Shown here: positions 4,631-26,194 of the stretch, piece by piece
Layout of the letters: each line of letters opens with the position of its first letter
Numbering within the stretch: the stretch's first letter is position 1
IMG/VR virus record: IMGVR_UViG_2061766007_000924
Span: 1 to 64,000 of that record
Reading direction: 5' to 3' (one strand)
Source of the DNA: a virus
Taxonomy: Duplodnaviria > Caudoviricetes
Length of the DNA: 64,000 bases
Notes under the pieces: model-generated
Told to the model about the DNA's origin: nothing
Databases searched by the model: none
Seen by the model: only the letters and a program-made list of their open reading frames with translations
Position numbers and translations under genes: made by a program

Positions 4631-7600
4631 ATGGATGCTGCTATAAACGACTATAGAGCAAGAAGGGAGAAAAGACTTGCTGAAAGGGGTATCTATCCTG
4701 AGAAGATCAGCAAGATCATTGCATTTGCCCAAAGAAGAGCTGCAAGGCTGGATGCAAGAGGCTACAGGGCGGACGCAGAGGGAGACGATCAAGACAACAA
4801 TCAGAATGAGGGTGGCGGAGGTTCTTCTGATGGCGCTCATGGTAATACCAGACTGCCTTTTGGCCTTTGCATGAGGTTCGGCATAGACATAGACCCGTCA
4901 TGGGGGCCGAGAGAGGCTTGGGATGCTCTCGCTGGTAAGGGAATAACACCAGCAGGGGCTTATGAAAGGCTCAAGAAGGGCGAAGATCCGGGAACGCCAG
5001 ACACGCCGGAGCCCCCTAAAGAGCCCGTTAGAAAAATAGCCGATAAGGACTACGGCGGAGCAGAATATGGATCTCTCAGAGGAAGAAAAAGAGATTGGGG
5101 AAGAGGCTACGAGCCGTGGATGCTGTATGGTGATAAAATTGACGGAACCGGAGATGGGAGCTACGCGCCAAGTCGGATGTCTGAGTCGTTTTGGACGAAA
5201 ACAGACATGTTCAGGTATCTCAAAGAAAGGGGCGTAGAAGAGTTTGAAGATCCAGAAACGGGTGAGCTCATCAATCCGAAGGAGATGGAGCTGCCAAAAG
5301 CGGTGTTCAAAAGGGGAGTAACTGGGTATACGGCAGTAACAATAGGGCTTAGAGATGGAAGGTACACTGTTGTTGGCACCGACATGGACGGGAAGAAAAA
5401 GACGATAAAGGATTACGGCTCTTTGAAGGAAGCGAAAGAATATCTTGAGGCGTATGGGGTAAAGGAAGAGGACATAAAGCTGTCTCCAGCATTGAAAAAG
5501 AGAGAGAAAGAGCGCCTTGAGTGGCTGTCTTCTGACAAAAAGCTCTATTTCGAGGATGGCGGTGTTAAGTATGGCGATCCTAAGATAGAAAAAGACTGGA
5601 AAGGTTATTATTTGGAAGGTGAAGCTGAGGACGGCAGCAAATTCTCAAGAAAATTTATGTCCAAGGCAGAGCTTATTAAATACTTGAAGGATCAGGGCGT
5701 TGAAAGGGTAAAATTTGAGAAAGAGACCATCAATCCCAAAGAATACGAGATCCCGGATACGAAAGCCACAATAGGAGGAAGATCTTATCAGGATGTAGAA
5801 CTGAGAGTGAGCCCGTATGGTGAGGTGTCACTGATCGGTACGGACTTGGATGGCGAAAGCAGAGCTATTGCCATAAGAAGATATGGTGAGACGCTTGGTG
5901 CGTTCAAAGAGAGAATAAGTCAGGACTATGGGCTTGGCGAAGATAAGCTGACGATTACCGATGAGACAAAACAAAAAATGGCTGAGATAGAGAAGGAAGA
6001 GGAAGAGAAGGAGCGCAGAAGAAAAGAGTTCGAGTCAAAGGCCATAATGTGGCCCACAGGCAGGAAATATGCAGATATAGAGCTCATGAAGGACGGGGAC
6101 GGCGTTTACTCGTTCTATGGATATACGAAGGATGGAGACAAAAGGAGAATCGCTTACGGAGAAGATTTTTATGGCGCGGAGAAATATGCGGAGGAAGCAG
6201 GGCACGATATAAGCGAATTTATCAAGGATGATGATGTAAGAAAAGACTATGAACGCTACAAGGACTCGATGAAGGACTTTGAAGCGAAAGCGTCTGATTT
6301 TGCTGGAGATAAGTACGCTGATATACAGATCATTTATGAAGGTGGCATGTACAAAGTCAGGGGTATAAATCCGAGGGGCCGAATGAAGGAAATCGCCAGA
6401 GAGACAAGCTATGAGGGTCTTGAGAAAGTGCTGAATCAGTACGGCTATTCTCCGACACAGTTCCCGATGGACGATGAGGCCACAAAGCGTAAAGATAGGG
6501 CCATGAAAGCAAAGTATGCGCTTGCTACAGGTGGGTATTATTCGCTCGGCAAAAAGGACGAGGCGTTCAAGGATATCTGTGTTCAGCAAGATCCGTCCGG
6601 AGAATGGTACATTATAGGCACAGACGTTGACGGGAAAGAAAAGCAGGTCGAAATTGTTAGATCATGGGACGATGCTGTGACCAAGATGAGCAAATACGGA
6701 GTATCGGACTATAAGATGAAAGACAAGTCTGGAGCTGAGATGGGCAAGCCTACTTATGGCATGCACGGCGTAATGCTTATGAGAAAACCGGGCGGCGGAT
6801 TTGTTGTTTATGCAGACACAGACAGGTTCGGAGCGCATGAGATCATGTACGAGTCTCCGAAAGAAGAAGAAGCGAGAAAGTGGCTGAGAGACAACAATGT
6901 GCCTGAGAGTGGGATCAAGACAAAGGGCATGAATCCGAATGACGATGTTGTCAGAGTAGCGCATACAAAGACAATGAAAAACTTCGATACTCATAGAATG
7001 AAAGCCATTGAAGGAACATTTATTGAGGACATGTCAGAAGAGGACAAGAAGGATGCTGCTGACATGATGGCGGAACTGTTCAACCAAGGCGAGTACAGAG
7101 TAGCGAGAAGCACAGATTCGTTTGCTGGTATTTTGGAAAACGGGTATAAGAGTCAGATTGAAATGGGCAAGGGCGGATATGGAGCCTCAAAGGATAAAGA
7201 AGGAAGGAAAGATTGCAGCAATCAAATGTATGGGCACGGTGGGCTGGATAAAACAGAGTATGAGAAGATGGGTTATATTGCGCCTCCTGACATTGCAGAG
7301 GACTACGACACTGGGGATCATCCATTTTATGGCGGATATTCTTCGATGACATACACTCTGAAAAAAGATACACTAAAGGACAGAACAACGTATACATTCG
7401 GAGACTCGCTAAACACATATATGCATGGCAGAGGATCGTTGAAGTCTGCTGGATATGCTGGGGAAAACCCGACAATCGAGGGGCTTACAGGAATAGGCGG
7501 TAAGACATATATGGATAGAGCACTTAGGGCATACAGAGAGTACAAACGGGGAGACATTTCTTTCTCTGAAATGTTCAAAAGAGTCAGGAGCTTGGCTAAC

Positions 7601-7843
7601 AACAACTATATTGAGTTGCAATTTACAGGGCCGGTAACTGCGTCTGATATCAAGAAGGTGTCATTTGACAATGTTAAGCATATAAAAAGTGCGTTTTCAA
7701 ACATGACTCCAGAGAAGAGAAAGAAGACTATAAAGATATTAAAAGACAACGGTATTGAGGTCGAGTACAGGAAAGATAGATACAGTCCTTTTGTTGACGG
7801 ATGGGACTGGATTAAGAAAAATTATCCCGATGACGTTGCGTGA
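4631..7843 (+). CDS. Effector 1: basic leader + adaptor A + about 8 internal repeats + C-terminal DUF3626-like (ART-fold) domain
   Basis: RBS AAAGGAG before ATG 4631; YRARREKRL, RLDA/RADA, HGNTRLPFGLC...AWDALAGKG; C-terminus GYKSQIE...RTTYTFGDS...YIELQFTGPV. Confidence 0.7.
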   Translation: MDAAINDYRARREKRLAERGIYPEKISKIIAFAQRRAARLDARGYRADAEGDDQDNNQNEGGGGSSDGAHGNTRLPFGLCMRFGIDIDPSWGPREAWDALAGKGITPAGAYERLKKGEDPGTPDTPEPPKEPVRKIADKDYGGAEYGSLRGRKRDWGRGYEPWMLYGDKIDGTGDGSYAPSRMSESFWTKTDMFRYLKERGVEEFEDPETGELINPKEMELPKAVFKRGVTGYTAVTIGLRDGRYTVVGTDMDGKKKTIKDYGSLKEAKEYLEAYGVKEEDIKLSPALKKREKERLEWLSSDKKLYFEDGGVKYGDPKIEKDWKGYYLEGEAEDGSKFSRKFMSKAELIKYLKDQGVERVKFEKETINPKEYEIPDTKATIGGRSYQDVELRVSPYGEVSLIGTDLDGESRAIAIRRYGETLGAFKERISQDYGLGEDKLTITDETKQKMAEIEKEEEEKERRRKEFESKAIMWPTGRKYADIELMKDGDGVYSFYGYTKDGDKRRIAYGEDFYGAEKYAEEAGHDISEFIKDDDVRKDYERYKDSMKDFEAKASDFAGDKYADIQIIYEGGMYKVRGINPRGRMKEIARETSYEGLEKVLNQYGYSPTQFPMDDEATKRKDRAMKAKYALATGGYYSLGKKDEAFKDICVQQDPSGEWYIIGTDVDGKEKQVEIVRSWDDAVTKMSKYGVSDYKMKDKSGAEMGKPTYGMHGVMLMRKPGGGFVVYADTDRFGAHEIMYESPKEEEARKWLRDNNVPESGIKTKGMNPNDDVVRVAHTKTMKNFDTHRMKAIEGTFIEDMSEEDKKDAADMMAELFNQGEYRVARSTDSFAGILENGYKSQIEMGKGGYGASKDKEGRKDCSNQMYGHGGLDKTEYEKMGYIAPPDIAEDYDTGDHPFYGGYSSMTYTLKKDTLKDRTTYTFGDSLNTYMHGRGSLKSAGYAGENPTIEGLTGIGGKTYMDRALRAYREYKRGDISFSEMFKRVRSLANNNYIELQFTGPVTASDIKKVSFDNVKHIKSAFSNMTPEKRKKTIKILKDNGIEVEYRKDRYSPFVDGWDWIKKNYPDDVA

Positions 7844-7854
7844 TGTTGCATATA

Positions 7855-7884
7855 TTGACAACAGACTTGGCGCAGCGTTATAAT
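7855..7884 (+). promoter_or_regulatory. SigmaA-type promoter for the 7902 gene
   Basis: TTGACA-18nt-TATAAT immediately after the effector 1 stop codon. Confidence 0.8.
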
Positions 7885-7901
7885 ATAGTGGGGGTGGAGA
7901 A

Positions 7902-8267: not shown

Positions 8268-8280
8268 AACAATGTGTTAA

Positions 8281-8314
8281 GAGGTCATAGCAGAGGCTAT
8301 GGCCTCTATTTTTT
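8281..8314 (+). terminator. Intrinsic terminator
   Basis: GAGGTCATAG-loop-CTATGGCCTC followed by TATTTTTT. Confidence 0.7.
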
Positions 8315-8333
8315 ATGCGCAGGAGGTGAGAAA

Positions 8334-9128
8334 ATGACAGACGTTGAAAGATTCAGACTCCGCAGGAGCAGAAGGTTGGCAGCGCGGGAAAGGATGGATG
8401 ACGAGGAAGAGAACGCAAACAACGGGGGCAAAAAAGGCGGACACGGCAACACAAAGCTGCCATACGGGTTATGCCACAAGTATGGTATCGAGATACAAAA
8501 AGGCTGGCAACCACGGGATGCTTGGGACGCTCTTGCGGAAAAAGGTGTCACTCCGGGCGATGAGTTTGCAAAGAGAGGATCTAAGCAGACAACGATCGAG
8601 ACGAAGCTTGGGACATATAAGAATACACGAGTAGAGAAGTACGGAAATCGGTATTTGATCAAGGGGGATATGCAGCCAACAGGAAAAGAGGGCTACGGGA
8701 GCAAGGGCGTTGACAACGTGCAGATAGCAGCATACACAAACAAAAAAGAGATGTTCGCGAGGCTGAAAGAGCACGGCATAACAAGTGTGGTGGATCCAGA
8801 TACGGGTGAAAAGGTGAATCCGATGAAGATGGACTTGCCAAAGGTCGTTGCTCAGAAAGGCGACAGTAGATACACAGACTTGGTGCTTGGGATTCGGTCA
8901 AATAAGTATGGTGTACCTTTCGAGAGAAAAGGCTTCACACTCGTGGCAAAGGATTTCGATGGGAAAAAGGTGGCAATGGGCACGTTCGATAGTCCAAAGC
9001 AAGCGAGAGACTATGCTATGGAAAAGTTGAAGTGCAAGAAAGAGGATATTCGAGAAACAAGAGACTACAAGGAAAAGGTAAGGCCGAAGATTGCAGAGAG
9101 CAACAGCCTATACAGACATTGGGCATAG
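8334..9128 (+). CDS. Effector-family protein 2: leader + adaptor A + about 2 repeats homologous to effector 1, no recognisable toxin domain
   Basis: AGGAGG RBS; FRLRRSRRL..RMDD, HGNTKLPYGLC; MFARLKEHG..DPDTGEKVNP matches MFRYLKERG..DPETGELINP of effector 1. Confidence 0.7.
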   Translation: MTDVERFRLRRSRRLAARERMDDEEENANNGGKKGGHGNTKLPYGLCHKYGIEIQKGWQPRDAWDALAEKGVTPGDEFAKRGSKQTTIETKLGTYKNTRVEKYGNRYLIKGDMQPTGKEGYGSKGVDNVQIAAYTNKKEMFARLKEHGITSVVDPDTGEKVNPMKMDLPKVVAQKGDSRYTDLVLGIRSNKYGVPFERKGFTLVAKDFDGKKVAMGTFDSPKQARDYAMEKLKCKKEDIRETRDYKEKVRPKIAESNSLYRHWA

Positions 9129-9347
9129 CTTTTCTCAAAAGTTGCTAAAAAGCTCTGCGAATTGCTACTTGTTTACACTTTGTTCATGAAAATGTCCATC
9201 GTAAATGATAAAATGTGCACGATGGAAAGAGTATAAGAAGCGGAAGCGCCGGGCAACTGGCGCTTTTATTATAATTGGGGCTTGCGTTTGCGGATGCATG
9301 CTTGGGAGCGCTTGGAAACAGGCGCTCTTTCTTTTTACCAACAACGG

Positions 9348-11549
9348 ATGAAGGGGAGTGACAGCTTGTACAAGAAACAGAATATAGTGGACTTCTCAAA
9401 ATTCGTTGACGGAAACGCGAAGTTCATTGAAAAGACAACAGGCAAATCTGTCAGGCCGAGGAACAAGGCGTACAATCAGGATGGATTTGTAAATCTGCTT
9501 ACGAATTATGGCACAAGCCGTGACTCGTCAGAGCATTATTTCTTCGAGTCGGAAGATCCTATTATGGACGATGAGCTGGAGAGGTTCTATGAGGGGAACG
9601 GGCTGTTCTCCAGAATCATTGACTTGCCAGCAGAAGAGGCCATAAAGCACGGGTTTGAGATAAAGGATCTTGCGGACGGCGAGACGAAGGACTTCTTCGA
9701 TGACTCTATGGATGAGCTTGAGTGGGACGAGAAGTTCATGACTGCGCTCAAGTGGGCGAGGCTTTTTGGCGGTTCAATCGGCGTAATGCTGATAAATGAC
9801 GGAAGGGGTCTGGAAGATCCGCTTGACTGGGATCATATCAAGTCAATTGATGACATTCAGGTTTACGACAGGTCGCTTGTTGTGCCGAATTATGCGTCAA
9901 TGTACAAGTATGAGGGCGAAGATCCTTCGAGGTCGAGGGGAAGCAGACTTGGCGTTCCTGAGAATTTCATGGTAACAAGCAAGTACGGTACTTTCACTGT
10001 TCACGAAAGCAGGTGCTTGATTTTCCAGAACGGCGTTCTTCCTGAAAGATGCACCAACGAGATTTACCAGATGTGGGGCATTCCTGAGTATATCAGGATT
10101 CACAGGGCAATCAAAGACGTAGAGGTTGCTCACGGCATGGCTCCGAAGATGCTGGACAGGTCGGTACAGGCTATCTACAAGATGCAGAATTTGGCGCTTG
10201 AGATGTCAACGGATCAGGGCGAAGAGAACATCTTGAAGAGGTTGCAGCTGATTGACCTTGCGAGAGGGCTTATGAACAGCATTGTCCTTGACGCTGAGGG
10301 TGAAGACTATGATTTCAAGTCTTTCACATTCACGGGCGTTTCGGATGTTATCAACACAACATGCAATTATCTGTCTGCGATTACGAACATACCGCAGACA
10401 GTTCTTTTTGGTCGTGCTCCGGCTGGTATGAATGCCACTGGTGACGGCGACATGGAGAACTACTACAACTATGTAGAGAGAATCCAGAAGCGCATGGTTA
10501 AGAAGAATCTGCGCTATTTGCTTGAAATTCTTGCGAAAGCAGGAGTCAGGAACAAAGAGATCAAGGGACATCCGCCGATCAAGATAGAGTTTAGTTCTCT
10601 TTGGTCTATGACAGAGCAGGAGAAAGTTGCGCTGGATCTGCAAAAGGCGCAGGTTGCTCAGACAAATGCCAATACAGCGAATGTCTATGTCCAGATGCAA
10701 GCGCTTGACCCGCAGGAAGTCAGGGATCAGCTTGCAAAGGATGGAGACTTTGAGATTGACACAATGCTGGATGACTACACCGATGAGGAGCTTGAGGAAA
10801 ACAATCCTGCCAACAAGCAGCAGCAAGACCAGATGGCTGCGATGATGGGCATGATGGGTGGAGGCGCACCCGGAGGCGGAGCGCCAGAAGGTGGAGCACA
10901 GAGCGGAAATCCAATGATGCCTCCAGAGGCGCAAGAAGGGGCTCAGGAAGCGCCGAAGCCTCAGATGGGTAATTTGCCGTCTGATGGCGGAAAAGACGTT
11001 CCTGATGAAAATCCGAAAGCTACAAGTGCAGAAGAAAAGAAAACTGAGAAGACAGTCGAAGAAGACGCTGACGATGTGAAGCCTCACATGCTTGGCGGAG
11101 TTGGAGTCATTGTTGTAAAGGACGGAAAGATTCTGACTGCTACGAGGATTAAAGGCAAAGGCACCGGACTCATTGGTGGGCCGGGAGGCCACATTGAGGA
11201 AGGTGAGACTCCGAAAGAAGCTGCTGTAAGAGAGACTTTGGAAGAGTTCAAAATCATTCCGAAGGATCTTGTGAGAATCGGCAGCAAGCTTGAGACGGGC
11301 ACAGGAATCAAAGTCGGCGGCGATAATGCAGAGCACTTGAGAAGCACCGTGTTCCTTTGCACCGAGTTCGAGGGAGAGCCAGAGTGTGACAATTATGAAA
11401 TGGCTATTCCCGTTTGGAGAGACTTGGATGAGCTCAGGCTTATGGATGACAGAATGTTCAAACCTTTCAAAGATGGGTTGAAGATGCTGAAAAATAAGGT
11501 CGCCAGAGGAATCATGGAAAACAAAAACTCTTGGGATGGAAAGTCCTGA
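9348..11549 (+). CDS. Portal protein (DUF1073-type) fused to a C-terminal Nudix hydrolase (alternative start TTG 9366)
   Basis: DGFVN, WARLFGGS, VHESR, IPQTVLFGRAPAGMNATGDGDMENYY portal motifs; low-complexity linker; Nudix box GGHIEEGETPKEAAVRETLEE. Confidence 0.9.
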   Translation: MKGSDSLYKKQNIVDFSKFVDGNAKFIEKTTGKSVRPRNKAYNQDGFVNLLTNYGTSRDSSEHYFFESEDPIMDDELERFYEGNGLFSRIIDLPAEEAIKHGFEIKDLADGETKDFFDDSMDELEWDEKFMTALKWARLFGGSIGVMLINDGRGLEDPLDWDHIKSIDDIQVYDRSLVVPNYASMYKYEGEDPSRSRGSRLGVPENFMVTSKYGTFTVHESRCLIFQNGVLPERCTNEIYQMWGIPEYIRIHRAIKDVEVAHGMAPKMLDRSVQAIYKMQNLALEMSTDQGEENILKRLQLIDLARGLMNSIVLDAEGEDYDFKSFTFTGVSDVINTTCNYLSAITNIPQTVLFGRAPAGMNATGDGDMENYYNYVERIQKRMVKKNLRYLLEILAKAGVRNKEIKGHPPIKIEFSSLWSMTEQEKVALDLQKAQVAQTNANTANVYVQMQALDPQEVRDQLAKDGDFEIDTMLDDYTDEELEENNPANKQQQDQMAAMMGMMGGGAPGGGAPEGGAQSGNPMMPPEAQEGAQEAPKPQMGNLPSDGGKDVPDENPKATSAEEKKTEKTVEEDADDVKPHMLGGVGVIVVKDGKILTATRIKGKGTGLIGGPGGHIEEGETPKEAAVRETLEEFKIIPKDLVRIGSKLETGTGIKVGGDNAEHLRSTVFLCTEFEGEPECDNYEMAIPVWRDLDELRLMDDRMFKPFKDGLKMLKNKVARGIMENKNSWDGKS

Positions 11550-11566: not shown

Positions 11567-12805
11567 ATGGACAAAGCTGTTGAAAAATTCAGAAAGCGCA
11601 GACAGGAAAGACTTGATGCGAAAAACGGAGCTAAGGAAGTCGAGTACGATAGCGTGGCTGAGTTCAGAAAACGTAGAGAAGAACGTCTCAATTCCAGAAT
11701 GGATGCTGGAGTAGGCTGGGTTTTTGGCGTTCTGAAAGAAAACGGCGTTGACACTCAGGGTATGAGTGTAAAAGAGGCTTTTGAGGCGCTTGGCAAGATT
11801 AACGGTGGTGGGAAAAATGGAAAGAGTGAAGCTGCTGCCAAAGAAAAGAACAATTCGCCAAAGAATGAACCGACAAACAGCAAAAAGTCTTCAAGTGGCG
11901 GAGAGGTAAAAGGCAGTTCCTACACCAACCGATATAAGACAAGTGGTGGAGTCAGCTATCCGAAGCTCAAGAAGGGTGCTGTGTATGATGAAGATACGTT
12001 GAAGGAAGTCAATAGGCTTGCGGATAGCACAGAAAGCAACAGGCCACCTAAAACAAGAGCACAAGAAAAAGCCCTCAAGTCGATGACAAGCAAAGATATA
12101 ACGTATCAGAAAGATCCTGATGGGACTGTTGTGGGATCTATTCCCGGACTGTCCCAGATGTATGATACAAAAGTTAAAGGGAAAAGTCAGGCTGTTCAGG
12201 ATGCGTATGATAAGAGAATCGAGCAGGGCAGACAGATCACTAAGGACATGGTTAGCATTAGTGACAAGCTTGGCTCACGCATGATGGGGCTTGAAAACTG
12301 CTTCAAGGGCGGAGAGAGCACTTCAAGAAAGATAGATAAAGTAAAAGACAAGTGGAAGCAGAAGGGCGAGGATCTGACTGATGAGCAAGCGCTTGCCAGA
12401 ATGGACGATGTTGTCCGATTCTCATACAAATGTGACCACGGTAAAATGGTAGAACAGATCAAGGGACTTGAGTCAGAACTTGAGAAAAACGGATATGAGA
12501 TAACAGAGCGTGATAACAAGTTCCTGCCTAAAGAGGATGGAACGCCGAGAGATTATAAGGCCGTTCATTTGCAGGTCAAAGCTCCGAGCGGAGAACTGTT
12601 TGAGGTGCAGGTGCAGTCGGAAGAAACGATCAAGGTAAAGAACAAGAATCACTCACTCTATGAGAGGTCAAGGGTTCTGGATGATAAAGATCCGAAACAG
12701 GCCGCTGAGAAAACAAAACTGGTAAACGATATGGTAAATAACTGGTCTGGGATGGCAGAGCCTGACGGAATTTTAGATCTGCCAACATTCAAGAAAAAGA
12801 AGTAG
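11567..12805 (+). CDS. Effector 3: double leader + RelA/SpoT-type small alarmone synthetase (toxSAS/Apk2-like)
   Basis: FRKRRQERLDA and FRKRREERL..RMDA; synthetase motifs K..ES..RKI, DDVVRFS, DYKAVHLQ, FEVQVQS. Confidence 0.85.
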   Translation: MDKAVEKFRKRRQERLDAKNGAKEVEYDSVAEFRKRREERLNSRMDAGVGWVFGVLKENGVDTQGMSVKEAFEALGKINGGGKNGKSEAAAKEKNNSPKNEPTNSKKSSSGGEVKGSSYTNRYKTSGGVSYPKLKKGAVYDEDTLKEVNRLADSTESNRPPKTRAQEKALKSMTSKDITYQKDPDGTVVGSIPGLSQMYDTKVKGKSQAVQDAYDKRIEQGRQITKDMVSISDKLGSRMMGLENCFKGGESTSRKIDKVKDKWKQKGEDLTDEQALARMDDVVRFSYKCDHGKMVEQIKGLESELEKNGYEITERDNKFLPKEDGTPRDYKAVHLQVKAPSGELFEVQVQSEETIKVKNKNHSLYERSRVLDDKDPKQAAEKTKLVNDMVNNWSGMAEPDGILDLPTFKKKK

Positions 12806-13220: not shown

Positions 13221-13244
13221 AACTGCGGAAGGGAAGTGGTTAGC

Positions 13245-16384: not shown

Positions 16385-17677
16385 GTGATTCTGTTGGACG
16401 GTGCGAGAAGACAAAAGCGAATGGATGATAAGGCCGTTCAACTCTATAAAATGCGCAGGGATGAGCGACTTTTGCGCAGGTATGATGCAGAAGAGGAAGA
16501 GGGCAACAATGGAGGGGGGAACGGCGGAGGTCATGGAAACACAAAAATCCCGTTCGGATTATGCCAAAGAGAGGGCATAAAAGTAGACCCGAACTGGACA
16601 CCGAGGGACGCTTGGGATGCGTTGGCTGGTAAGGGCTACAGTGCAGGAGATGTCTACAAAGAGCTCAAAGAGACCGGAAAAGTTGGCAAGAAGAGCTCCA
16701 CCAAGACGAAGAAACCACCAACGAGAATAGAGGAAAGCCATTTTCAGCCGGAATTTACATCAAAGACATACAGAAAAAACACAATGGTTTTCGCTGACTA
16801 TATAAGCGACCATTGTGACGATGGAAACATAACCGAGTTTCTTGGCGCAGGTGCAGCTGGAGGGAAAAAGCCGTCAAAGTTCAAAGTCACGAGACTGTCA
16901 GGAGCAGACGGGGCTTGCGTAACTTATACACGGGATCTGGACGATATTGAGATTCGTATTCCGAATTTTGCTTCTATAAAAGACGAGAGGACAAGGGCTC
17001 AAGCAATAAGGACATTTGCTCATGAGTATACGCATTACCTTGACATGCTTGCCAGAGGTGAGCACGGGGATCATTTTACCGGGGCAAATTCAAAGATAGC
17101 TGATGAGCTGGAAAAGGCAAAAAGCAAGGGGATCGGAGAAGAAGTCTCAAATGTCTTCAAAGAGTACAATAAAGGCTACGAGAAGCTCAAGAATGACTAC
17201 GATGCCAAGGTAAAGACGTTCGACCGAGATTTTGCCAAGCAAAAGTTTGGTGACAATTTCCCGGAGTGGCTGAAAGAGGACGGAACGTGGAATTATTCCC
17301 TTGGGTGGAGAGCTTGGCAAGCGCATCAACCGGAAATGAAGAAATACAGCTCGGAGAGGAAAAAGGCGGCTAAAAAAATGGCTACTGATAGTTCTTTCGA
17401 GAGACGGGCGTATATGGACGGCGCAACAAGCTTGCAGGGGATATACGATTCGATTCATGGCGGAGAGCTGAGAGACCAAAAGGTTGTAAAGTACGGACAT
17501 TCACTTGGTTATTTCAAGAGAGACAAGGAAAACAGAGCGGTAGAGGTCATAGCTGACTATGTGGCTTTAAGGGCAACTAACTCAAAGTATGCAGATATGT
17601 TCGCGAAGGATCATCCGGGGCTTGCCGCTGCACTGGATGAGGCCATAGTAGAGATGACTAAGGTTTTGAGGGGGTAA
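16385..17677 (+). CDS. Effector 6: leader + adaptor A + HExxH zinc metallopeptidase domain
   Basis: YKMRRDERL..RYDA, HGNTKIPFGLC; FAHEYTHYLD; YGHSLGYF...EVIAD. Confidence 0.75.
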   Translation: MILLDGARRQKRMDDKAVQLYKMRRDERLLRRYDAEEEEGNNGGGNGGGHGNTKIPFGLCQREGIKVDPNWTPRDAWDALAGKGYSAGDVYKELKETGKVGKKSSTKTKKPPTRIEESHFQPEFTSKTYRKNTMVFADYISDHCDDGNITEFLGAGAAGGKKPSKFKVTRLSGADGACVTYTRDLDDIEIRIPNFASIKDERTRAQAIRTFAHEYTHYLDMLARGEHGDHFTGANSKIADELEKAKSKGIGEEVSNVFKEYNKGYEKLKNDYDAKVKTFDRDFAKQKFGDNFPEWLKEDGTWNYSLGWRAWQAHQPEMKKYSSERKKAAKKMATDSSFERRAYMDGATSLQGIYDSIHGGELRDQKVVKYGHSLGYFKRDKENRAVEVIADYVALRATNSKYADMFAKDHPGLAAALDEAIVEMTKVLRG

Positions 17678-17989: not shown

Positions 17990-18940
17990 ATGGCTACAAT
18001 CGCTACAGTGAAAGATCCGCCTATCAGGACGCTGATGGCGGTTAGTAGCTCAAGGGGCAATTCAAGCACAGAGAAGATACCGAGAAGAAAGCCAGTTTAT
18101 CCGATTTCTGCGGAGAGAGAGCTTGCAAGGGTGTTTCTTCCTGTAGCTGTCATGATAAGAAAGAAGTCGAAGCCGTACATTGACAGGCTGATGGCTGTAT
18201 ACGATGTCTGGTCACAAGAGAATGTGAGAACGGACGCGAGAATCAGCATGCAGGATGCAGCCGGGATGATTCTGGATGAGTACGGCGCAGACATACAGGG
18301 TGACTTAGACATCGAGCAAATAACAAAAGGCGTTCAGAGGACTGCAAAATATGCCAGAGGCATTTCAATCAGAGACTGGAAAAGTCTTGTGGATGATGCC
18401 TTGGGCTTTGATATAGACGAGCCTTTCTACGTGGAGCAGACGGAAGATTTGCTTAACAAGTGGGTGTATGAGAGCGTTCAACATATCACGAGTTATCCAC
18501 AGGAGTATTTAGGGAAGGTTCAGGAGGCTATCATTTGGGGGTACACAACGCACCAACCGATGGTCAACGTGTATCGAAGAATTGAGAAGCTGACAGGCGA
18601 CACAAGAGCTCACGCAAGGATGATTGCACGGGATCAGATGGGGACGCTCAATTGCAGAATGACACGATATGAGCATGAAAGCATGGGCGTTTCAAAGTAT
18701 AAGTGGGTTACAAAACACGATTTCCGAGTGAGAGAATGTCACAGGGAATTGGATGGGCATATATTTGACTGGAACAATCCTCCTGCTCAATGGTACATGA
18801 CTAAGAGTAGGGGGATTGTTTATACAGGGGAGTACGCACATCCCGGTGAAAGTTATTGTTGTCGGTGCCGTGCAGCTCCTGTGTTTGATGAAAAAATCGT
18901 AGAGGCGGCAAAGGCCAACAGAAAGTTTTATGCTGTATAG
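17990..18940 (+). CDS. Minor head protein MuF (SPP1 gp7 family), short form with no toxin extension
   Basis: RARMIARDQ-like (HARMIARDQ), YKWVT..DFRVRECH..LDG..F.W, HPGESYCCRC. Confidence 0.9.
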   Translation: MATIATVKDPPIRTLMAVSSSRGNSSTEKIPRRKPVYPISAERELARVFLPVAVMIRKKSKPYIDRLMAVYDVWSQENVRTDARISMQDAAGMILDEYGADIQGDLDIEQITKGVQRTAKYARGISIRDWKSLVDDALGFDIDEPFYVEQTEDLLNKWVYESVQHITSYPQEYLGKVQEAIIWGYTTHQPMVNVYRRIEKLTGDTRAHARMIARDQMGTLNCRMTRYEHESMGVSKYKWVTKHDFRVRECHRELDGHIFDWNNPPAQWYMTKSRGIVYTGEYAHPGESYCCRCRAAPVFDEKIVEAAKANRKFYAV

Positions 18941-18945: not shown

Positions 18946-21900
18946 GTGATTGCCATTAAGGACTACAAAGCCATATACGAATACAGAGAAAGACGGCAAT
19001 ATAGGATTGATGGCAAGCGTCTTGATGATGAGTGGAAGACGATCAAAGGCACTCATGTCATGATAGATGATGAAGGATCTATCACAAAAGGGCCTGAGAA
19101 GCTGAGGAATCTGTCAAGTAAAAAGCCAAAAAACTTGACAGTCGGCAAAGAGATGTCTCCAATCAATTCGGACTATGTCTATGATGATGGAGACACCGAG
19201 GACGATTTCACTCATAAGAATCTCAAAAAGCTCAAGAAAATCTATGATGAGCAGGGCATGGATGCTGTTCATGATGAATGGTACAAGTTCAGAATGGCAG
19301 ACAGCACCAAGGATATACACCAGATAAGCAAAGACGAGGCGGACGAGATCATGTATGATAACGTCCGTCAAAGCATTTATGATGGCTGGTTTCGAGCAGC
19401 AGACAGTTCTTACAAGCCGCAGTTGACGGATGCAATTGTAAAGAATCCAGAGATGCGGAACGCAGCTCTGAATTTGGCTTATGAGAACTACAGGAACAAC
19501 ACTGAAAATCCGTTGCCTTTTGAAGAGTTTCTGGTAACACCTATTAAGATGTACAGAGGCGAAAAGGGTCAAAAGCATGTCGAAGATGACATTTTCGATG
19601 CCTACACCTTTGATCCTAAGATGGCAAGGCATTTTGCAGGTGACAATGGCACTGTAACTGAGACTGAGGTAAGGCCGATTGACACTTACGGAAGCATGAG
19701 GGCGGTTGGCGAGGCTGAGATATGGGTGCCGAGACAGCTTTCTCCTGTTGGCTACAAGGGCGACTCCAGAGAGGACGGTATCACTTGGGAGAGGTTCGAT
19801 CCTCAGAAGTGGGCTCTTGAAGACTACAAGGAAGAGGATGACGGCTGCGAGGATCTGCTTGAATCTATCATTCAGGAAGCTGAGATGGTCAAGCTGTTTG
19901 ACGGCAGCAGCAAGGAATCTGACAGACTGACGATGCAGAGATGCATTGAGAGCATTCAGATCATGGCCTTGCAGCTGACAGCGAAGCTTAGGCCAAAGCA
20001 TGAAGACAGCGCTTTCTTCGCTGGAGAGTTGAACAGCAATCTTGGTGAGAGAAACATTCTTTATCCAGAAGTACAGGCATTCAGAGAGCGCAGACAAAAG
20101 AGACTGGATGCAAAGAGTGACGAAGATGAAGGGCGCTGGGTAACGACAGAGGAAAAGCATAAAGTTCATATCAACGAAGAGGGAGTACCGGACAAGGGAA
20201 ATCCTCATGTAATAGCAGCAATGAAGGGTGAGGGCAAGAATCCAAAAACAAGAGCCGAGGTTATAACCGCAAGAGTTAAGAAAAAGTCGGCGGCTATAAA
20301 GGAACTTGTCAAGAGAGTCAACGAGAAAAATGAAGCTCATGAAAAAGCAATAGACGAAAAAAGCGAAGCAGACAAGGAACTGAGAAATGCCAAAAGAGGG
20401 CTCAGACGAGTTAAATCCAAAAAAGACTTTATCAAAGGGCTTGGATATAAAGAGGGCGATAAGAATAAAATGCTTAGAGATTCCGATGATTTGCAAATTC
20501 AGATGGACAAGCTAAGAGACAGTCGGCCCGTTTATAGACTTAGCGATGAAGAAAAGGCCAAATACACAGAGCTTGAGAGCAGAAAGAATCAAGTAGATTA
20601 TGCGGCAGGTGTATATGATGATTGCTTTGGGCCAGACGCTTTTACAAGAGAAAAGGTGGCGCAAGCACGGGAACGGTCAGCGGCTGCTGACAAAAAGATG
20701 AGGCAAGCTGAGAAGGAGTATCGTCAGGCGAGAAAAGAGCTCAAGCAAAAGGCGAAGAACGGAGATATAAACAAAGCGCGATTGTACACAGATGAAGAGA
20801 GAGCGTCTGAGATCAAAAAAGTTGTTGAATCGCCACAATGGGGAGACTTAAGCCAAGAGCAGAGAGACAAAGCTATGGCGGCTATCAACGGAGCGTCTGA
20901 TGCAGAAATACAGCTGTTAAGCAGGACGTTTGATAAAGTAAGATTCAACGACAGCTACGGAGCAACGACAATAGGCGGCTCAACGGCTTGGTACACTCCA
21001 AGAACAGGGGCAATCACGTTGTCACAAGAGGACATGGGAAAGCCAAAAACAGTGTGGCACGAATTTGGGCATTTCTTGGACGATGCAGAGGTTAGTGGCT
21101 GTGACGCTGGAGAAACGAGGCTGATGGGGTCAACATACAAAGACACCTTGTCACATCGAGTCTCAAGTGATAAAATATTGCACAGTGAAAAAGCGGCTGC
21201 GGATATGCAAAAGCTGTTGGATGAAGAAGCTCCCGGAAAGTATCGAATTGAGTCTTCCAACGGCAACATGCTTCGCGTCTTCGATGTTGAAAAGGGTGAA
21301 TATGTGGATGCTTCGGAAGATATGTCATATGACTATTATCTATCTGAGGTAACATGCAGACATTTTCATGAATTCACCTTTAGGGACAAGGAATATGATG
21401 ATTATTTAAGGTCTATTGGTTATCCTTTGGATAGTGAAATGCCGAAATACAGTGATTTCATGGAGACATATACGACTCCAAAGCGCAAATTGGAAAGAGA
21501 AAGAGAAAAGTATCCGGGTGCGAAAAAAGAGTACATGAACAAAATGAGCAAATTCCATTTGCAAAGGAATCAAGCGATAGACAAGAATTTGGAAGAGTAC
21601 AGAAGACAGACTAAAGCATATGACGATAGGTGCACAGAGAGGGGAAATCAAGTTGGAGCAATATCGGACATTATGTGCGGTATGATGCGAGGAAAAGGGG
21701 CATGGATATACGGATGCCACAAGGAAGATTATTATAGCATTATGGATGCACCTGCTAAAGAAGCTGTCGCACATTATCATCAAATGAGAGTCATGGGAAG
21801 CAAGTATGGGATGGAGCTTCTGAATAGTTTGCTGCCGAGCGTGGCGCATGGGCTGGAAGAGGCTTACAATGAATGGCTGTGGAGGAATGTAGATGTATAA
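18946..21900 (+). CDS. Effector 7: tandem [leader + adaptor B + ART-like domain]-[leader + adaptor B + coiled coil + HExxH metallopeptidase]
   Basis: YRERRQYRIDG/RLDD, WKTIKGTHVMIDDEG; MYRG..AYT..A..F..GEAEIWV; internal FRERRQKRLDA + GRWVTTEEKHKVHINEEG..GNP; VWHEFGHFLD. Confidence 0.7.
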   Translation: MIAIKDYKAIYEYRERRQYRIDGKRLDDEWKTIKGTHVMIDDEGSITKGPEKLRNLSSKKPKNLTVGKEMSPINSDYVYDDGDTEDDFTHKNLKKLKKIYDEQGMDAVHDEWYKFRMADSTKDIHQISKDEADEIMYDNVRQSIYDGWFRAADSSYKPQLTDAIVKNPEMRNAALNLAYENYRNNTENPLPFEEFLVTPIKMYRGEKGQKHVEDDIFDAYTFDPKMARHFAGDNGTVTETEVRPIDTYGSMRAVGEAEIWVPRQLSPVGYKGDSREDGITWERFDPQKWALEDYKEEDDGCEDLLESIIQEAEMVKLFDGSSKESDRLTMQRCIESIQIMALQLTAKLRPKHEDSAFFAGELNSNLGERNILYPEVQAFRERRQKRLDAKSDEDEGRWVTTEEKHKVHINEEGVPDKGNPHVIAAMKGEGKNPKTRAEVITARVKKKSAAIKELVKRVNEKNEAHEKAIDEKSEADKELRNAKRGLRRVKSKKDFIKGLGYKEGDKNKMLRDSDDLQIQMDKLRDSRPVYRLSDEEKAKYTELESRKNQVDYAAGVYDDCFGPDAFTREKVAQARERSAAADKKMRQAEKEYRQARKELKQKAKNGDINKARLYTDEERASEIKKVVESPQWGDLSQEQRDKAMAAINGASDAEIQLLSRTFDKVRFNDSYGATTIGGSTAWYTPRTGAITLSQEDMGKPKTVWHEFGHFLDDAEVSGCDAGETRLMGSTYKDTLSHRVSSDKILHSEKAAADMQKLLDEEAPGKYRIESSNGNMLRVFDVEKGEYVDASEDMSYDYYLSEVTCRHFHEFTFRDKEYDDYLRSIGYPLDSEMPKYSDFMETYTTPKRKLEREREKYPGAKKEYMNKMSKFHLQRNQAIDKNLEEYRRQTKAYDDRCTERGNQVGAISDIMCGMMRGKGAWIYGCHKEDYYSIMDAPAKEAVAHYHQMRVMGSKYGMELLNSLLPSVAHGLEEAYNEWLWRNVDV

Positions 21901-22258: not shown

Positions 22259-22358
22259 AATAGATTGATGTTGCTAAATAGCGAAAATATTGCGCTATAC
22301 AGGAAAATAATCGTTGTATTACCCATGTCACAGCGTTAAAATTAGCCGAGGTGATTAT

Positions 22359-23012
22359 ATGGGAAGATACATTGATTTAACGGGAAAGCAGTATGGACGC
22401 TTAACAGTCTTGTACAGGACACAAGACCACATTTCAAAATCTGGAAGACCTGCTGTTGTGTTTCATTGCAGATGTACATGTGGAAAAGAATGTGACGTAA
22501 TGAAGTTGGCGTTGGTTAAGGGATATACGAAGTCATGTGGATGCTTGAGATCGGAAGAAACAAAGAAGAGGCGTACAAAAAGAGACGATATATCCAGAAA
22601 ACTGAGAATTATTTATAGGCACATGTGCGAAAGGTGCTATGACGAAGCAGATAAAAGGTATGAAAGATATGGCGGAAGAGGCATTGCAATTTGCGATGAA
22701 TGGATTGAGGAAGATGGAATGGAGAGGTTTATAGAGTGGGCGAGAAATAACGGGTACTCTATTGGACTGACAATAGATAGAATAGATAACAATGGAAACT
22801 ACAGTCCTACAAATTGCAGATGGACAACGCCAAAAGAACAATCAAACAACAGGTCAACGAACACAATGCTTACTGTCGATGGGACAACAAAGACAATAGC
22901 ACAATGGCTGGACTTCTTGGGAGTAAAATCTACAAGGCTTTACTATTACGATGAAGACAGAAAAGTCGAATTCGTAAGAGAAAAAATAAAGCAAAAAAAT
23001 TTAATAGATTAA
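22359..23012 (+). CDS. Free-standing HNH-like homing endonuclease
   Basis: DLTGKQYGRLTV, CRCTCG, TKSCGC, YGGRGIAICDEW, TIDRIDNNGNYSPTNCRW; own promoter (TTGTAT-17-TAAAAT, 22314-22342). Confidence 0.85.
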   Translation: MGRYIDLTGKQYGRLTVLYRTQDHISKSGRPAVVFHCRCTCGKECDVMKLALVKGYTKSCGCLRSEETKKRRTKRDDISRKLRIIYRHMCERCYDEADKRYERYGGRGIAICDEWIEEDGMERFIEWARNNGYSIGLTIDRIDNNGNYSPTNCRWTTPKEQSNNRSTNTMLTVDGTTKTIAQWLDFLGVKSTRLYYYDEDRKVEFVREKIKQKNLID

Positions 23013-23034
23013 GGGCACGAAAGTGCCCTTTTTT
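23011..23034 (+). terminator. Intrinsic terminator
   Basis: AAGGGCAC-GAAA-GTGCCCTT-TTTT. Confidence 0.8.
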
Positions 23035-23059
23035 CTATGCCAAAAAGAGGGGATGAAAA

Positions 23060-24619
23060 ATGGAGATTAGAGATGCGCCTAAACTCGTGAAAGTAACGAG
23101 GCTTGATAGTATGCCGATGCCAAGGGCATATTTCACACCGGAAGGATATCTGAAAGATAAGCCCGTGCTCACGTCTACGGGAATATTCGAGTATGCAAAT
23201 CCTGATGGAAGTATAAGGCGCGAACTAAGGCTTCCCGAGGATGTTTTCGATCCTAAAAGTCTCAAGAGCTATCTGGGGAAACCAATAGTGGTGACTCATG
23301 ATGCCGGGCTGATTGACAAAGACAACGTGGCAGAGAATCAGATTGGCACTATCTTGAGCGAAGGGGAAAGAAAAGGAAATGATGTTGTCGCTTCTATAAT
23401 CATTCACGACACTGAAGCTATGAAGGATGCAGGGTACAAAGAATTAAGCCTTGGATACAACTTGGATCTGGACGAGACTCCGGGCGAATGGCAGGGGCAA
23501 CATTATGATGCGCGGCAGCGTAACATAGTTATCAACCATTTGGCTCTTGTGCGTGAGGCAAGGGCTGGAGAACAGGCACGGCTGAATATGGACGGTCGTG
23601 ACAAAAACACACTTATAGGGGGTAAAAAAATGAGCAAGAAACTCACCAAGACTCGTCATGGTGACTCTGTTCTTTCTCAGGAAGAGTTTGAGAAAGCCAT
23701 TGACGAGTACAAGATGCGTAAGGCCCAGCGTGAGAAGACTGACGCTGATGATGTTGTTGAGGAAGAGGCCGTTGAGGAAGTCAAGGATCGCAACCCCAAG
23801 GACATTGAGGCGCAGCTTGCCGAAGTCAAGGCCAGACGTGACCGCCGTGACGAGGCTGGAGATCCTGAGGACATGGAAGACGCAATGAGCGTCATTGCCC
23901 ATCAGGACGAGGACATCGACATTCTGTATGACATCATTGACACACTGCTTGCAAAGCAGGATTTCGATGCGGCTGACGAGGAAGAGGAAGTCACTGCCGA
24001 GGAGGAAGTCATTGATGACGAGGACGAGAACCTTGATGAAATTGATGATCTGAACAAGCTCAAGGACAACAAGGCCAAGGCTGACGCTGACGATGATGAA
24101 GCGTTTGTTGAGGAAGAGGAAGTCAAGGAAGATGCCGATGACATCGAGGATGTCGAGGACGAAGAGATGGTAGATGAGGAAGAGGAAGTCAAGGAAGACG
24201 CTGACGATACCGAGGAAGAGGTTGTCGAGGATAAGGAAGAGTGGGAAGAGGACGGAGATGACTGCGGCACCAAGAAGGAGCGCATGGACTCCGCTATCAG
24301 CCGTTCTGTTCGCAATCACCTGATCATGGGCAACATCGGTCGGCAGGTCGGTCTGAACAATCTTGAGATGAAGGATATTCGCGATGCGAAGATTGCCATT
24401 ATCAAGAAGGTTCGTCCCGACATGCGTCTGGATGGCAAGTCCAATGCGTACATCAACGGCGCTTTTGAGAGTGCCCGTAAGGCTATCAAGGCGAAGAAGG
24501 TCAAGGACACTTCCTACCAGAAGCGTCAGATGTTCAACAAGGATTCTCGCGATGTAGTAGAAAAAAACACTGCTGAGAGTGCTCGTGACCGCATGATCAA
24601 GAGACTCTACAAGAAGTAA
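23060..24619 (+). CDS. Prohead protease/scaffold (DUF2213-type) with a long acidic scaffold region
   Basis: TPEGYL, RRELRLPEDVF, KELSLGY, NHLALVREARAG; located before the decoration and capsid genes. Confidence 0.85.
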   Translation: MEIRDAPKLVKVTRLDSMPMPRAYFTPEGYLKDKPVLTSTGIFEYANPDGSIRRELRLPEDVFDPKSLKSYLGKPIVVTHDAGLIDKDNVAENQIGTILSEGERKGNDVVASIIIHDTEAMKDAGYKELSLGYNLDLDETPGEWQGQHYDARQRNIVINHLALVREARAGEQARLNMDGRDKNTLIGGKKMSKKLTKTRHGDSVLSQEEFEKAIDEYKMRKAQREKTDADDVVEEEAVEEVKDRNPKDIEAQLAEVKARRDRRDEAGDPEDMEDAMSVIAHQDEDIDILYDIIDTLLAKQDFDAADEEEEVTAEEEVIDDEDENLDEIDDLNKLKDNKAKADADDDEAFVEEEEVKEDADDIEDVEDEEMVDEEEEVKEDADDTEEEVVEDKEEWEEDGDDCGTKKERMDSAISRSVRNHLIMGNIGRQVGLNNLEMKDIRDAKIAIIKKVRPDMRLDGKSNAYINGAFESARKAIKAKKVKDTSYQKRQMFNKDSRDVVEKNTAESARDRMIKRLYKK

Positions 24620-24633
24620 GGGAGGAAAGAAAA

Positions 24634-25134
24634 ATGCAGCTTAACTACAACTACAATACTACTATTGGAGCCGCTGGCGGTATCGTTGATCTGGCTCCGC
24701 ACTACGTTCGTTCTTTCATCAATGAGGCCGCAAATGGCGCTATGCTGTTCGGCATGGGTGTCACTGCTGGCACTCTGGCTGGTCAGGGCGTTAAGGTTCC
24801 TGCCACTGCCGACACTGCTGGCAAGTTCGAGGGCATTGTCACCAATCGCCGCACCACCGAGCTCAACCTTGAGGGTGGTCTGACTCTGCGCAACAAGTGC
24901 GCTCTTGGTGTCATGCAGTACGGTGTCATTTATGGCCTCGTGGCTGATGACATCACACCCGCCTACGGCGATGCGACTTATCTTATCACCAGTGGTGATG
25001 AGGCTGGTTATTTCACCAACGCGGCTGCTGGGCAGGGTGACACATTTACGACTGTCGCCGTCAAGGGCCGTTTCGTGAGCACTGTCAGTGACGGCGTTGC
25101 CGCCATTGAGCTCTACAATCAGGCTCAGGCTTGA
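24634..25134 (+). CDS. Head decoration/cement protein
   Basis: Ala/Gly-rich 166-aa protein (FGMGV) between scaffold and MCP; strongly biased codon usage. Confidence 0.7.
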   Translation: MQLNYNYNTTIGAAGGIVDLAPHYVRSFINEAANGAMLFGMGVTAGTLAGQGVKVPATADTAGKFEGIVTNRRTTELNLEGGLTLRNKCALGVMQYGVIYGLVADDITPAYGDATYLITSGDEAGYFTNAAAGQGDTFTTVAVKGRFVSTVSDGVAAIELYNQAQA

Positions 25135-25162
25135 TTGAGTTCACAAGAAGGAGGATAAGTTA

Positions 25163-26194
25163 ATGAAAAACAACACTGCTTACAAGGCCGACTATAAGGC
25201 CATTCGCAATTCTGCTATTCCTGCTGCTGTTATGCAGTCTGGACTGACTCACTTCGACAGTGCCGATGAGGTTTCCGCTTTCTTTGCGAGAGAGCTGGAT
25301 TACGTCAAGGCCAAGAGCTATGACAAGCTCTATCCTCAGTTCACCGCCATGAATCTGTTCCCCATCTCTTCCGAGGCAGATCCCGGCGCTGAGACTGTCA
25401 CCTACTACACCTACGACCGCGAGGGTTTTGCGAAGGTCATTGACAACTACAGCGATGACCTGCCCCGTGCCGATGTCAACGGCAAGCCCAACATTGCTCA
25501 GGTCAAGTCTCTGGGCGCTTCCTACGGCTACTCCGCTCAGGAGATGCGCGCAAGCCGCATGGCTGGCAAGTCTCTGGATGCTCGTAAGGCCGAGTCCGCT
25601 CGTTACCAGATCGACAACCTGAACAACAAGATTGCTTGGAGGGGCGATGCCGCCTCTGGTCTGATGGGCGTTCTTTCTGCTGGACAGAATGTTCCCACCT
25701 ACTCCATCACTGCGGGTGCTACTTCCAACAAGACCAAGTGGACTGAGAAGACCGCTGACGAGATCCTTGCTGATGTCAACGGCATGGCTGCTCAGGTGTC
25801 CCGTGTCACTAAGGACGTTGAGCGTCCCGACACTCTTTGCGTTCCCAACGATGTCTTCATGGACATCTCCACTCGTCAGCTGCCCAACACTGCTGTCACT
25901 GTGAAGAAGTTCATCCTTGACAATGCTCCTTATCTCAAGGACATCGTTTCCACTCCTGAGCTGAATCCTGATTCCGTTGAGACGAATCCCTATGCTCTTT
26001 CCAGCGGCGGTCAGGGCGTTGCGTTCCTGTTCACCAACAGCGCGGATAAGATGTCTCTGGAGAATCCGATGCCGTTCATGCAGTACCCTGTGCAGCCCCA
26101 CAATCTTGAGACTGTGGTGCCTTGCGAGGCTCGTACCGCTGGCGTTATCTTCTACTATCCTCTGTCTGCGCTGATTGCTGTCGGCGTGTCCTGA
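25163..26194 (+). CDS. Major capsid protein (DUF2184-type)
   Basis: FFARELDYV, SDDLPRADV, YGYSAQEM, GDAASGLMG, GVIFYYP; highly biased codons; followed by a terminator. Confidence 0.9.
   Translation: MKNNTAYKADYKAIRNSAIPAAVMQSGLTHFDSADEVSAFFARELDYVKAKSYDKLYPQFTAMNLFPISSEADPGAETVTYYTYDREGFAKVIDNYSDDLPRADVNGKPNIAQVKSLGASYGYSAQEMRASRMAGKSLDARKAESARYQIDNLNNKIAWRGDAASGLMGVLSAGQNVPTYSITAGATSNKTKWTEKTADEILADVNGMAAQVSRVTKDVERPDTLCVPNDVFMDISTRQLPNTAVTVKKFILDNAPYLKDIVSTPELNPDSVETNPYALSSGGQGVAFLFTNSADKMSLENPMPFMQYPVQPHNLETVVPCEARTAGVIFYYPLSALIAVGVS

Follow-up and report, generated by a model that had tools for sequence, protein, structure and literature searches.

Phage T4 loads non-structural proteins into its prohead by means of an N-terminal tag, the capsid-targeting sequence of IPI-III and Alt, and the same protease, gp21, which trims the capsid and scaffold also removes the tag, the cargo being delivered with the DNA (PMC9026906; see also Mullaney and Black 1996, as cited in PMC12991175). 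In phiKZ and SPN3US, gp175 and gp245, respectively, cut many of the proteins inside the head at a short motif and remove their propeptides (PMC5694885, PMC10052503). For the T1-like coliphages, S121 has been named as the catalytic residue of the protease (bioRxiv 10.1101/2023.05.21.541620), the mature capsid protein of TLS has been found to begin with ASDMGIW by Edman sequencing of the major virion protein (PMC11447400), and the cryo-EM model of T1 gp47 begins at residue 27 (PMC11945409). Polymorphic toxins fused to MuF have been described in temperate phages, with no cleavage discussed (Jamet et al. 2017, PMC5576092). Here we have analysed a 64,000-nucleotide stretch of DNA from a tailed phage (Duplodnaviria; Caudoviricetes), positions 1 to 64,000 of the IMG/VR record IMGVR_UViG_2061766007_000924 (hereafter the window), with its protease-scaffold protein of the DUF2213 family as the subject. 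Every gene of the window is on the plus strand, to which all coordinates refer; in the head module (3250-26194), seven large "effector" genes and small companion genes are interspersed among the head genes. We put at about 70% the probability that, in this head module, from an uncultured phage related to Faecalibacterium phage FP_Brigit, the DUF2213 protease cuts the capsid protein, the scaffold and the leaders of the cargo proteins after Asp. A first-pass annotation had already read recurrent [RKNH]-x-D-[ASGD] tetrapeptides at domain boundaries as a general cleavage code, by which the protease would cut at Asp, remove the leaders and free the cargo inside the head, and we have found every tetrapeptide that it listed in the gene and at the place named.

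The experimental anchor is the major capsid protein (25163-26194), which belongs to the family PF09950 (205 bits) and is homologous to the T1 capsid protein (PDB 9kmg, E=1.5e-33). Its residues 30-33 read HFDS (25250-25261), and the alignment with TLS and T1 predicts a maturation cut after D32, i.e., a propeptide of 32 residues. The TLS genome encodes the peptide ASDMGIW at a single place, which lies in the capsid gene right behind A-K-N-D (locus L002, 15168-15188), and A27 of T1 lies directly behind V-K-Q-D. Both Asp residues align in the column of D32 (HFD/S, with the slash marking the cut), where Rtp has E-K-A-D/A-A. That is, a capsid cut after the aligned Asp has been shown experimentally in homologues, by the Edman sequence in TLS and, consistent with it, by the start of the cryo-EM model in T1. 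In addition, the Edman sequence corresponds to capsid residue 33, so that 32 residues are removed in TLS; the text of the TLS paper infers a removal of 45 residues, which is inconsistent with its own Edman sequence (PMC11447400).

The same column is conserved far beyond these phages. While [HRN]-F-D-[SD] is invariant at this site in 14 relatives, a comparison of 1.8 billion cluster representatives with the capsid protein gave 2,695 matches with E-values up to 0.001, and from the best 150 of these we took the 122 of nearly full length (295-380 residues) for an alignment. Asp occupies the D32 column in 109 of the 116 representatives that have residues there. Numbering the Asp as P1, P3 is R in 31, N in 30, H in 13 and K in 9 of the 116 (83, or 72%, together), P2 is L in 70, M in 16 and F in 12 (98, 84%), and P1' is A in 81, S in 21, D in 9 and G in 1 (112, 97%), with Glu predominating at P3'. 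The segment upstream of the Asp column is unconserved and varies from 5 to 70 residues in length, as fits a discarded propeptide. Overall, the P3 and P1' residue classes of the first-pass annotation are recovered from capsid sites of the family, independently of the window's cargo, and the TLS Edman sequence, the start of the T1 model and the Asp column give good support, by homology, to its statement that the DUF2213 protease cuts at Asp.

To carry the capsid sites over to other proteins, we derived a seven-column log-odds matrix from 113 of them, excluding the window's close kin, and applied it to every one of the 18,738 positions in the window's proteins. The best score of the whole scan falls where the second leader unit of effector 5 ends, with the capsid site of the window itself in second place. 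Residues 1-70 of the seven cargo proteins contain five hits of at least 7 bits against 0.53 expected (Poisson p=2e-4, a value weakened by the paralogy of the leaders), and 12 of the 21 hits of at least 7 bits lie in head-interior proteins, which make up 31% of the total length (p=0.01).

Six of the seven effectors share a leader unit, and effector 4 carries a leader of another type. The shared unit is a helix of the pattern acidic-x-A-[V/I]-x-x-[Y/F]-[R/K]-x-R-R-x-x-R-[L/I], to which the closing Asp is joined either directly or by way of a four-residue insert that ends in R-x-D; the unit often occurs twice, and is followed by a linker rich in Gly, Asn, Asp and Glu and by a conserved small domain. 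The leader of effector 1 (4631-4777) is recognised by a leader hidden Markov model (HMM; independent E-value 5e-4) and contains RLDA (4745-4756) and RADA (4766-4777), which rank 18 and 27 in the matrix scan. That of effector 2 (8334-8402) ends in RMDD (8391-8402, rank 41), behind which come an acidic linker and the shared adaptor domain. Double leaders are found in effector 3 (11567-11707; two HMM hits), with RLDA (11609-11620) and RMDA (11696-11707, rank 7), and in effector 5 (14692-14805), with RLDA (14734-14745, rank 19) and RMDA (14794-14805, rank 1). Effector 6 has RMDD (16418-16429) and RYDA (16478-16489, rank 12) in its leader (16385-16489; HMM independent E-value 6.5e-6). The non-homologous leader of effector 4 (13687-13854) ends in F-R-E-D-A (13843-13854), with a low matrix rank of 206, and its homologue P0011 has the same leader type, ending in F-R-S-D-D ahead of the linker.

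Effector 7 has both an N-terminal leader (18946-19029), with RIDG (19003-19014) and RLDD (19018-19029), and an internal leader unit (20068-20112; HMM hit at residues 376-387), which ends in RLDA (20101-20112, rank 11). The internal unit is kept in two relatives, L006 and L012, as RLDA and RRDA, and the L006 orthologue has R-M-D-E in the RLDD column. Thus RLDD and the internal RLDA are retained as conserved sites from the earlier list for this protein, while two other entries are dropped: RIDG, in whose column the L006 orthologue has no Asp, and REDG (19768-19779), which is likewise not conserved in L006, ranks 1286 and is probably a chance match.

We have further collected 48 distinct leader units from database homologues and related loci, and all 48 end in R-x-D. 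Their P2 is mostly L, M or F, and their P1' is A in 28, D in 9, E in 4, and T, K and V in one each; the P1' class [ASGD] is therefore too narrow for leader ends. In the AlphaFold model of effector 5 (23 sequences; mean predicted local distance difference test, pLDDT, of 70), a helix spans residues 2-36, residues 36-52 are disordered and a helical domain follows at 53-98, so that the terminal site (D37) would sit exactly at the junction of helix and linker. The proposed placement at domain boundaries holds for the leaders. Taken together, the matrix ranks, the R-x-D end in 48 of 48 units and the junction of helix and disordered linker argue strongly that the leaders would be cut off by the DUF2213 protease, as had been suggested.

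The conserved small domain behind the leader, termed here the adaptor domain, is encoded in effector 5 at 14845-14985 (residues 52-98 counted from the Met at 14692) and is found also in effectors 1, 2 and 6. It has the pattern H-G-N-T..P-F-G-L-C..A-W-D-A-L..K-G and is modelled at a pLDDT of 82-88, and a Foldseek search of the effector 5 leader and adaptor model against the PDB gave nothing at E<=0.001. Further downstream, residues 196-389 of effector 3 (11567-12805) and 179-430 of effector 5 (14692-16152) match PHROGs 7625 and 4728. These PHROGs are annotated as "head morphogenesis", and the match is limited to the C-terminal parts, i.e., the toxin ends of MuF fusions, which fits packaging in the head. 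Outside the window, an 836-residue protein of an NCBI genome (P0025) combines an ADP-ribosyltransferase exoenzyme-type domain (PF03496) with a double leader (R-Y-D-E and R-F-D-D) and the adaptor domain, which indicates that the leader and adaptor carrier is reused with other toxin classes outside the window phage.

The putative cutting enzyme is the protease-scaffold protein (23060-24619), with the protease at residues 1 to ~178 and the scaffold domain at ~180-519. It matches PF09979 at 116 bits (cut-off 22) and PHROG 530, "head maturation protease", at E=4e-72. H80, S130 and H160 are invariant from the window protein to T1, TLS and Rtp, and S130 aligns with the T1-like S121. We infer that the DUF2213 serine protease is the enzyme that cuts, and that it is specific for Asp. 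A Pfam search of the protease domain at E<=10 brought up no further family, and a language-model search for look-alikes returned the weak leads YonD_N and Mu-like_Pro (score 0.88). The family is large, as one search found about 2,900 DUF2213 homologues, including those of T1-like, Klebsiella and PB1-like therapeutic phages.

Besides the eight sites listed earlier, the protease-scaffold has four unlisted ones (NPDG 47, HYDA 148, KADA 340 and NKDS 493). We examined them in an alignment of 17 homologues that includes T1, TLS and Rtp, and in a second set of the 120 closest homologues listed (at least 73% identity). At the junction of protease and scaffold, NMDG (23585-23596), within L-N-x-D-[SGA], is invariant in 17/17 and in 100% of the 120; its T1 equivalent is the best matrix hit among the T1 head and tail proteins, and it is probably the self-cleavage site. 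HGDS at residue 200 (23657-23668; [RK]-x-D-[SGA]) is present in 17/17, T1, TLS and Rtp included, with its Asp in 100% of the 120. RMDS at residue 408 (24281-24292; [RNK]-x-D-[SAG]) is shared by 16/17, including the T1-like phages, with Asp in 98% of the 120. NKDS (24536-24547) lies 24 residues before the C-terminus, and 16/17 homologues have [NKH]-x-D-[SGA] at 24-26 residues from that end (KGDS in T1, KGDA in TLS). RLDG (24425-24436; R-L-D-G-K-S) is found in 100% of the 120 and is missing at that column in T1-like phages. RLDS at residue 14 (23099-23110; R-x-D-S), near the protease N-terminus and conserved in 17/17 and 99% of the 120, could be a cut site or a structural motif.

Two regions of the scaffold deserve separate mention. 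Downstream of HGDS, a helix (23681-23752) that ends in KTDA (23735-23746; Asp conserved in 97% of the 120) resembles the cargo leader unit: the HMM built from leaders of outside homologues has its best non-cargo hit in the window at scaffold residues 211-222, with an independent E-value of 0.03, and this segment is flanked by the conserved H-G-D/S and K-T-D/A. The likeness is suggestive. In the acidic stretch (24077-24202), x-D-A-D-D repeats give KADA, KEDA and KEDA, with matrix ranks 17, 24 and 25 of 18,738; their Asp is conserved in 61-90% of the 120 homologues, the P3 in relatives being mostly non-basic, and an Asp at residue 342 is present in 17/17. Overall, in the 120-homologue set (mean column identity 0.52), Asp residues inside the motif in the scaffold domain are conserved at 0.86, compared with 0.48 for the other 45 Asp (p=0.0005). 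NPDG 47 and HYDA 148, which lie inside the conserved protease fold, are probably structural and have been set aside as cut sites.

The capsid, scaffold and leader sites of the window thus share the capsid consensus and are conserved. Based on this, we propose the following course of head maturation. The scaffold-fused DUF2213 serine protease would cut after Asp at exposed sites only, with [R/N/H/K]-[L/M/F]-D/[A/S/D] preferred. It would remove the 32-residue capsid propeptide at HFD/S, free itself from the scaffold at L-N-M-D/G, and divide the scaffold at some five more conserved sites, including one that is 24 residues from the C-terminus. From the seven toxin-like cargo proteins, the N-terminal helical leaders would be clipped at the R-x-D that ends the unit. 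The leader, resembling a scaffold helix, most likely lets the cargo co-assemble with the scaffold core; cutting would then uncouple the two, so that the scaffold fragments leave while the cargo stays, freed inside the head, and enters the host along with the DNA.

Several results tell against this proposal. In 2000 shuffles per protein, the loose motif [RKNH]-x-D-[ASGD] occurs at the chance level in the seven cargo proteins (26 seen, 23.2 expected) and in the portal, MuF and capsid proteins together (5 and 5.4). High-scoring matrix hits are present also in tail and early proteins, and since such proteins would never meet the prohead protease yet match well, the motif is a necessary context and not a sufficient predictor. 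Several conserved scaffold sites, as well as the portal and MuF sites described below, score poorly on the capsid-derived matrix. The protease-scaffold of PB1 shows no enrichment of the loose motif, and the non-basic P3 there means that the cutting rule varies within the family. The AlphaFold model of the protease (residues 1-197, 11 close relatives) is unusable at a pLDDT of 35. Finally, the first leader site of effector 5 falls within the predicted continuous helix, and since the leaders are paralogous, R-x-D could persist in them as part of a binding helix.

If the recurrence were due to chance or composition, i.e., to proteins rich in Asp, Arg and Lys matching a degenerate pattern of four residues, the counts above would be readily understood, and so would those in neck and tail proteins (24 seen, 20.1 expected) and early proteins (17 and 14.2), as well as the lack of conservation of RIDG and REDG. 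As a general code the loose motif therefore fails statistically, because the comparison of head with tail and early proteins reveals no enrichment beyond the protease-scaffold, where it is seen 12 times against 4.6 expected (p=0.0025). A tighter, position-specific signal persists once the loose motif is set aside: the narrow form R-[LMIYVF]-D-[ADG] is seen 12 times in the cargo against 1.4 expected (z=9), almost always at leader ends, which as paralogues are not independent events, and controls in the same shuffles with Glu replacing Asp or with the motif reversed show no enrichment. The loose motif is also enriched in the protease-scaffolds of T1 (13 against 2.2), TLS (13 against 1.9), Rtp (9 against 1.9) and FP_Brigit (10 against 3.5), which with the window makes five from distant phages, and the Asp is column-conserved in the 116 capsid representatives and the 120 scaffolds. 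Family-wide conservation, scaffold enrichment and the matrix scan largely rule out an origin by chance, to which we give hardly any credence. A more serious alternative, in our view unlikely, is that the capsid is cut after Asp while the R-x-D of the leaders has only a structural or binding role in a targeting helix (it might, for instance, form a salt bridge in a coiled coil of leader and scaffold), and that the cargo stays full length in the virion. The leader units are homologous, so that conservation by itself is no proof of a cut site; the same helix type exists in the scaffold; the first R-L-D-A of double leaders is inside a predicted continuous helix; and P1' is more variable at leader ends than at capsid sites. 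On the other hand, the leader ends are the window's best matches to a matrix derived from capsid sites only, the terminal site always adjoins the disordered acidic linker, internal leader units within long cargo proteins are conserved, and the unrelated leader type of effector 4 and P0011 also ends in F-R-x-D, which argues for a functional site rather than an inherited helix sequence. Processing of the cargo by another peptidase, namely the zinc peptidase suggested by the HEFGH motif of effector 7 or a host protease, with a coincidental likeness to the capsid site, appears to us very improbable. Zincin-like self-processing of packaged polyvalent proteins has indeed been proposed (Iyer et al. 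2017, PMC5512222), but cargo proteins of relatives have leaders with these same R-x-D ends, the DUF2213 scaffold contains the conserved sites as well, and the site is identical to the capsid site of phages such as T1, in whose head module no zinc peptidase gene of this kind is seen. Of the first-pass interpretation as a whole, cutting at Asp and, as a strong inference, the removal of leaders have stood, and the general code has been given up together with RIDG and REDG.

Sites in the portal and MuF proteins had been placed under the same code. NQDG ([NRKH]-x-D-[GS]-[YF]; 9474-9485) in the portal (9282-11549, fused to a NUDIX domain) is conserved in the relative L017, FP_Brigit, T1, TLS and Rtp, but has a matrix rank of only 2207. 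The T1 equivalent is just 7 residues from the start, and the T1 portal model, which begins at residue 32, is uninformative on this K-H-D-G at residues 5-8. RTDA (R-x-D-[AD]; 18227-18238) in MuF, a separate gene of 316 residues (17990-18940), is conserved in 9/9 relatives with the region and ranks 1914; it is absent from T1-like MuF proteins, i.e., the conservation is confined to the clade. So both sites are conserved in relatives and score poorly against the capsid sites, and we regard them as tentative candidates for cutting. A further element of the portal is V-E-E-D-A-D-D (11055-11075, residues 592-598), which lies between the Q/M/G/P-rich linker and the NUDIX domain and is a copy of the scaffold's V-K-E-D-A-D-D repeats. 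In relatives, the NUDIX domain is immediately preceded by different Asp-rich x-x-D-[ADG] elements, that of FP_Brigit, T-N-A-D/A-A-D, scoring 11 bits. These elements hint that the NUDIX enzyme may be cut off the portal.

Other genes of the head module include the terminase large subunit (3250-4581) and the cement protein (24634-25134). Between the cargo array and the protease-scaffold gene, an HNH endonuclease gene (22314-23012; PHROG 374, E=1.5e-63) is probably a homing-type insertion in the module. An HD-domain protein (PF13328, HD_4; 13236-13667) is encoded inside the cargo array, just downstream of the small gene behind effector 3. Among cultured phages FP_Brigit is the nearest, with an identity of 62% for the capsid protein and 50% for the protease, and we have also used 15 uncultured relatives (loci L004-L018) with a capsid identity of 66-90%. 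No leader-bearing cargo was found in FP_Brigit, which is therefore of no use as an experimental proxy for the leaders.

In the PB1-like therapeutic phages, the capsid models of Pa193 and E217 begin at residue 66, two residues past an A-M-D-S that is met again in the scaffold, and this is compatible with the Asp rule without matching it exactly, the P3 being non-basic; it suggests a variant of the rule with Ala at P3. In PB1 itself (locus L020), A-M-D-S is present in the capsid protein at residues 61-66 and in the C-terminal region of the scaffold at residues ~396-402.

Among the open-access papers and preprints searched, none states an Asp rule for the DUF2213 family or describes these leaders, and the papers examined on Rogue1, Pam3, dwarf myoviruses and MuF toxins, and the two preprints on proteases and CBASS (cyclic oligonucleotide-based antiphage signalling system), hold no cut-site data for the family. 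We give slightly better than even odds to a wider statement, that DUF2213 proteases are Asp-specific with the rule [R/N/H/K]-[L/M/F]-D/[A/S], and that phages of gut Firmicutes use this rule to fill their capsids with interchangeable toxin-like enzymes by way of a helical clip-off tag that mimics the scaffold. In that case, capsid targeting would have evolved a second time, independently of T4, and the system could serve to load chosen proteins into phage heads. The rules known for T4, phiKZ and HK97 have enabled the prediction of mature virion proteins and the loading of foreign proteins, and the DUF2213 family is far more widespread, occurring in T1-like coliphages, hundreds of Klebsiella and Vibrio phages, PB1-like Pseudomonas phages, cyanophages and gut Firmicutes phages. 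An Asp rule would improve virion annotation and would explain how polymorphic toxin-like cargo is packed in gut phages without MuF fusion. It is anchored on published TLS and T1 data and on a family-wide alignment, and is directly testable in cultured phages. It also bears on recent work in which bacterial CBASS immunity senses prohead proteases, including T1-like ones.

Compared with known systems, the toxin-like C-terminal domains in the head module are reminiscent of MuF-fused polymorphic toxins, whose PHROGs effectors 3 and 5 match. In contrast to these fusions, the carrier in the window is a helical leader with an adaptor domain and MuF is a separate gene, profile searches giving no MuF match in any of the seven effectors. 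Another likeness is to herpesvirus assemblin, an N-terminal serine protease fused to a scaffold, which cuts itself at the junction (R-site) and at a second place some 25 residues before the end of the scaffold (M-site), at Ala/Ser. The candidate junction and near-C-terminal sites in the window would follow this layout, and the order and spacing of H80, S130 and H160 are similar to its His, Ser and His, although the cut is expected at Asp rather than at Ala/Ser. The systems of phiKZ and SPN3US differ in their motif ([S/A/G]-x-E), in belonging to jumbo myoviruses and in using a T4-gp21-like protease.

The T1-like coliphages (T1 gp50/gp47, TLS gp33/gp36 and Rtp) have the same PF09979 protease and PF09950 capsid families, the same gene order of portal, MuF, protease-scaffold, decoration protein and capsid protein, and a capsid propeptide that ends at the aligned Asp, and they have the junction site, the C-terminal site and several internal scaffold sites in common with the window. 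They differ in that no genes occupy the possible place of a cargo array between terminase, portal, MuF and protease-scaffold, that the scaffold is without the leader-like helix and MuF without the R-x-D-A region, and that the identity is 26-34%. The window system is a member of this T1-type head-maturation family. What it adds resembles the T4 capsid-targeting sequences, since here, too, an N-terminal tag is met on otherwise unrelated proteins of the head module. In T4, however, the protease is of another family, with Glu at P1 ([L/I]-x-E) instead of Asp, and the tags have no sequence similarity to those of the window, where the tag is a basic helix of 15-40 residues, often doubled, with a linker and an adaptor domain behind it. 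By analogy, the window system would work like the T4 capsid-targeting sequences while not being a member of that system.

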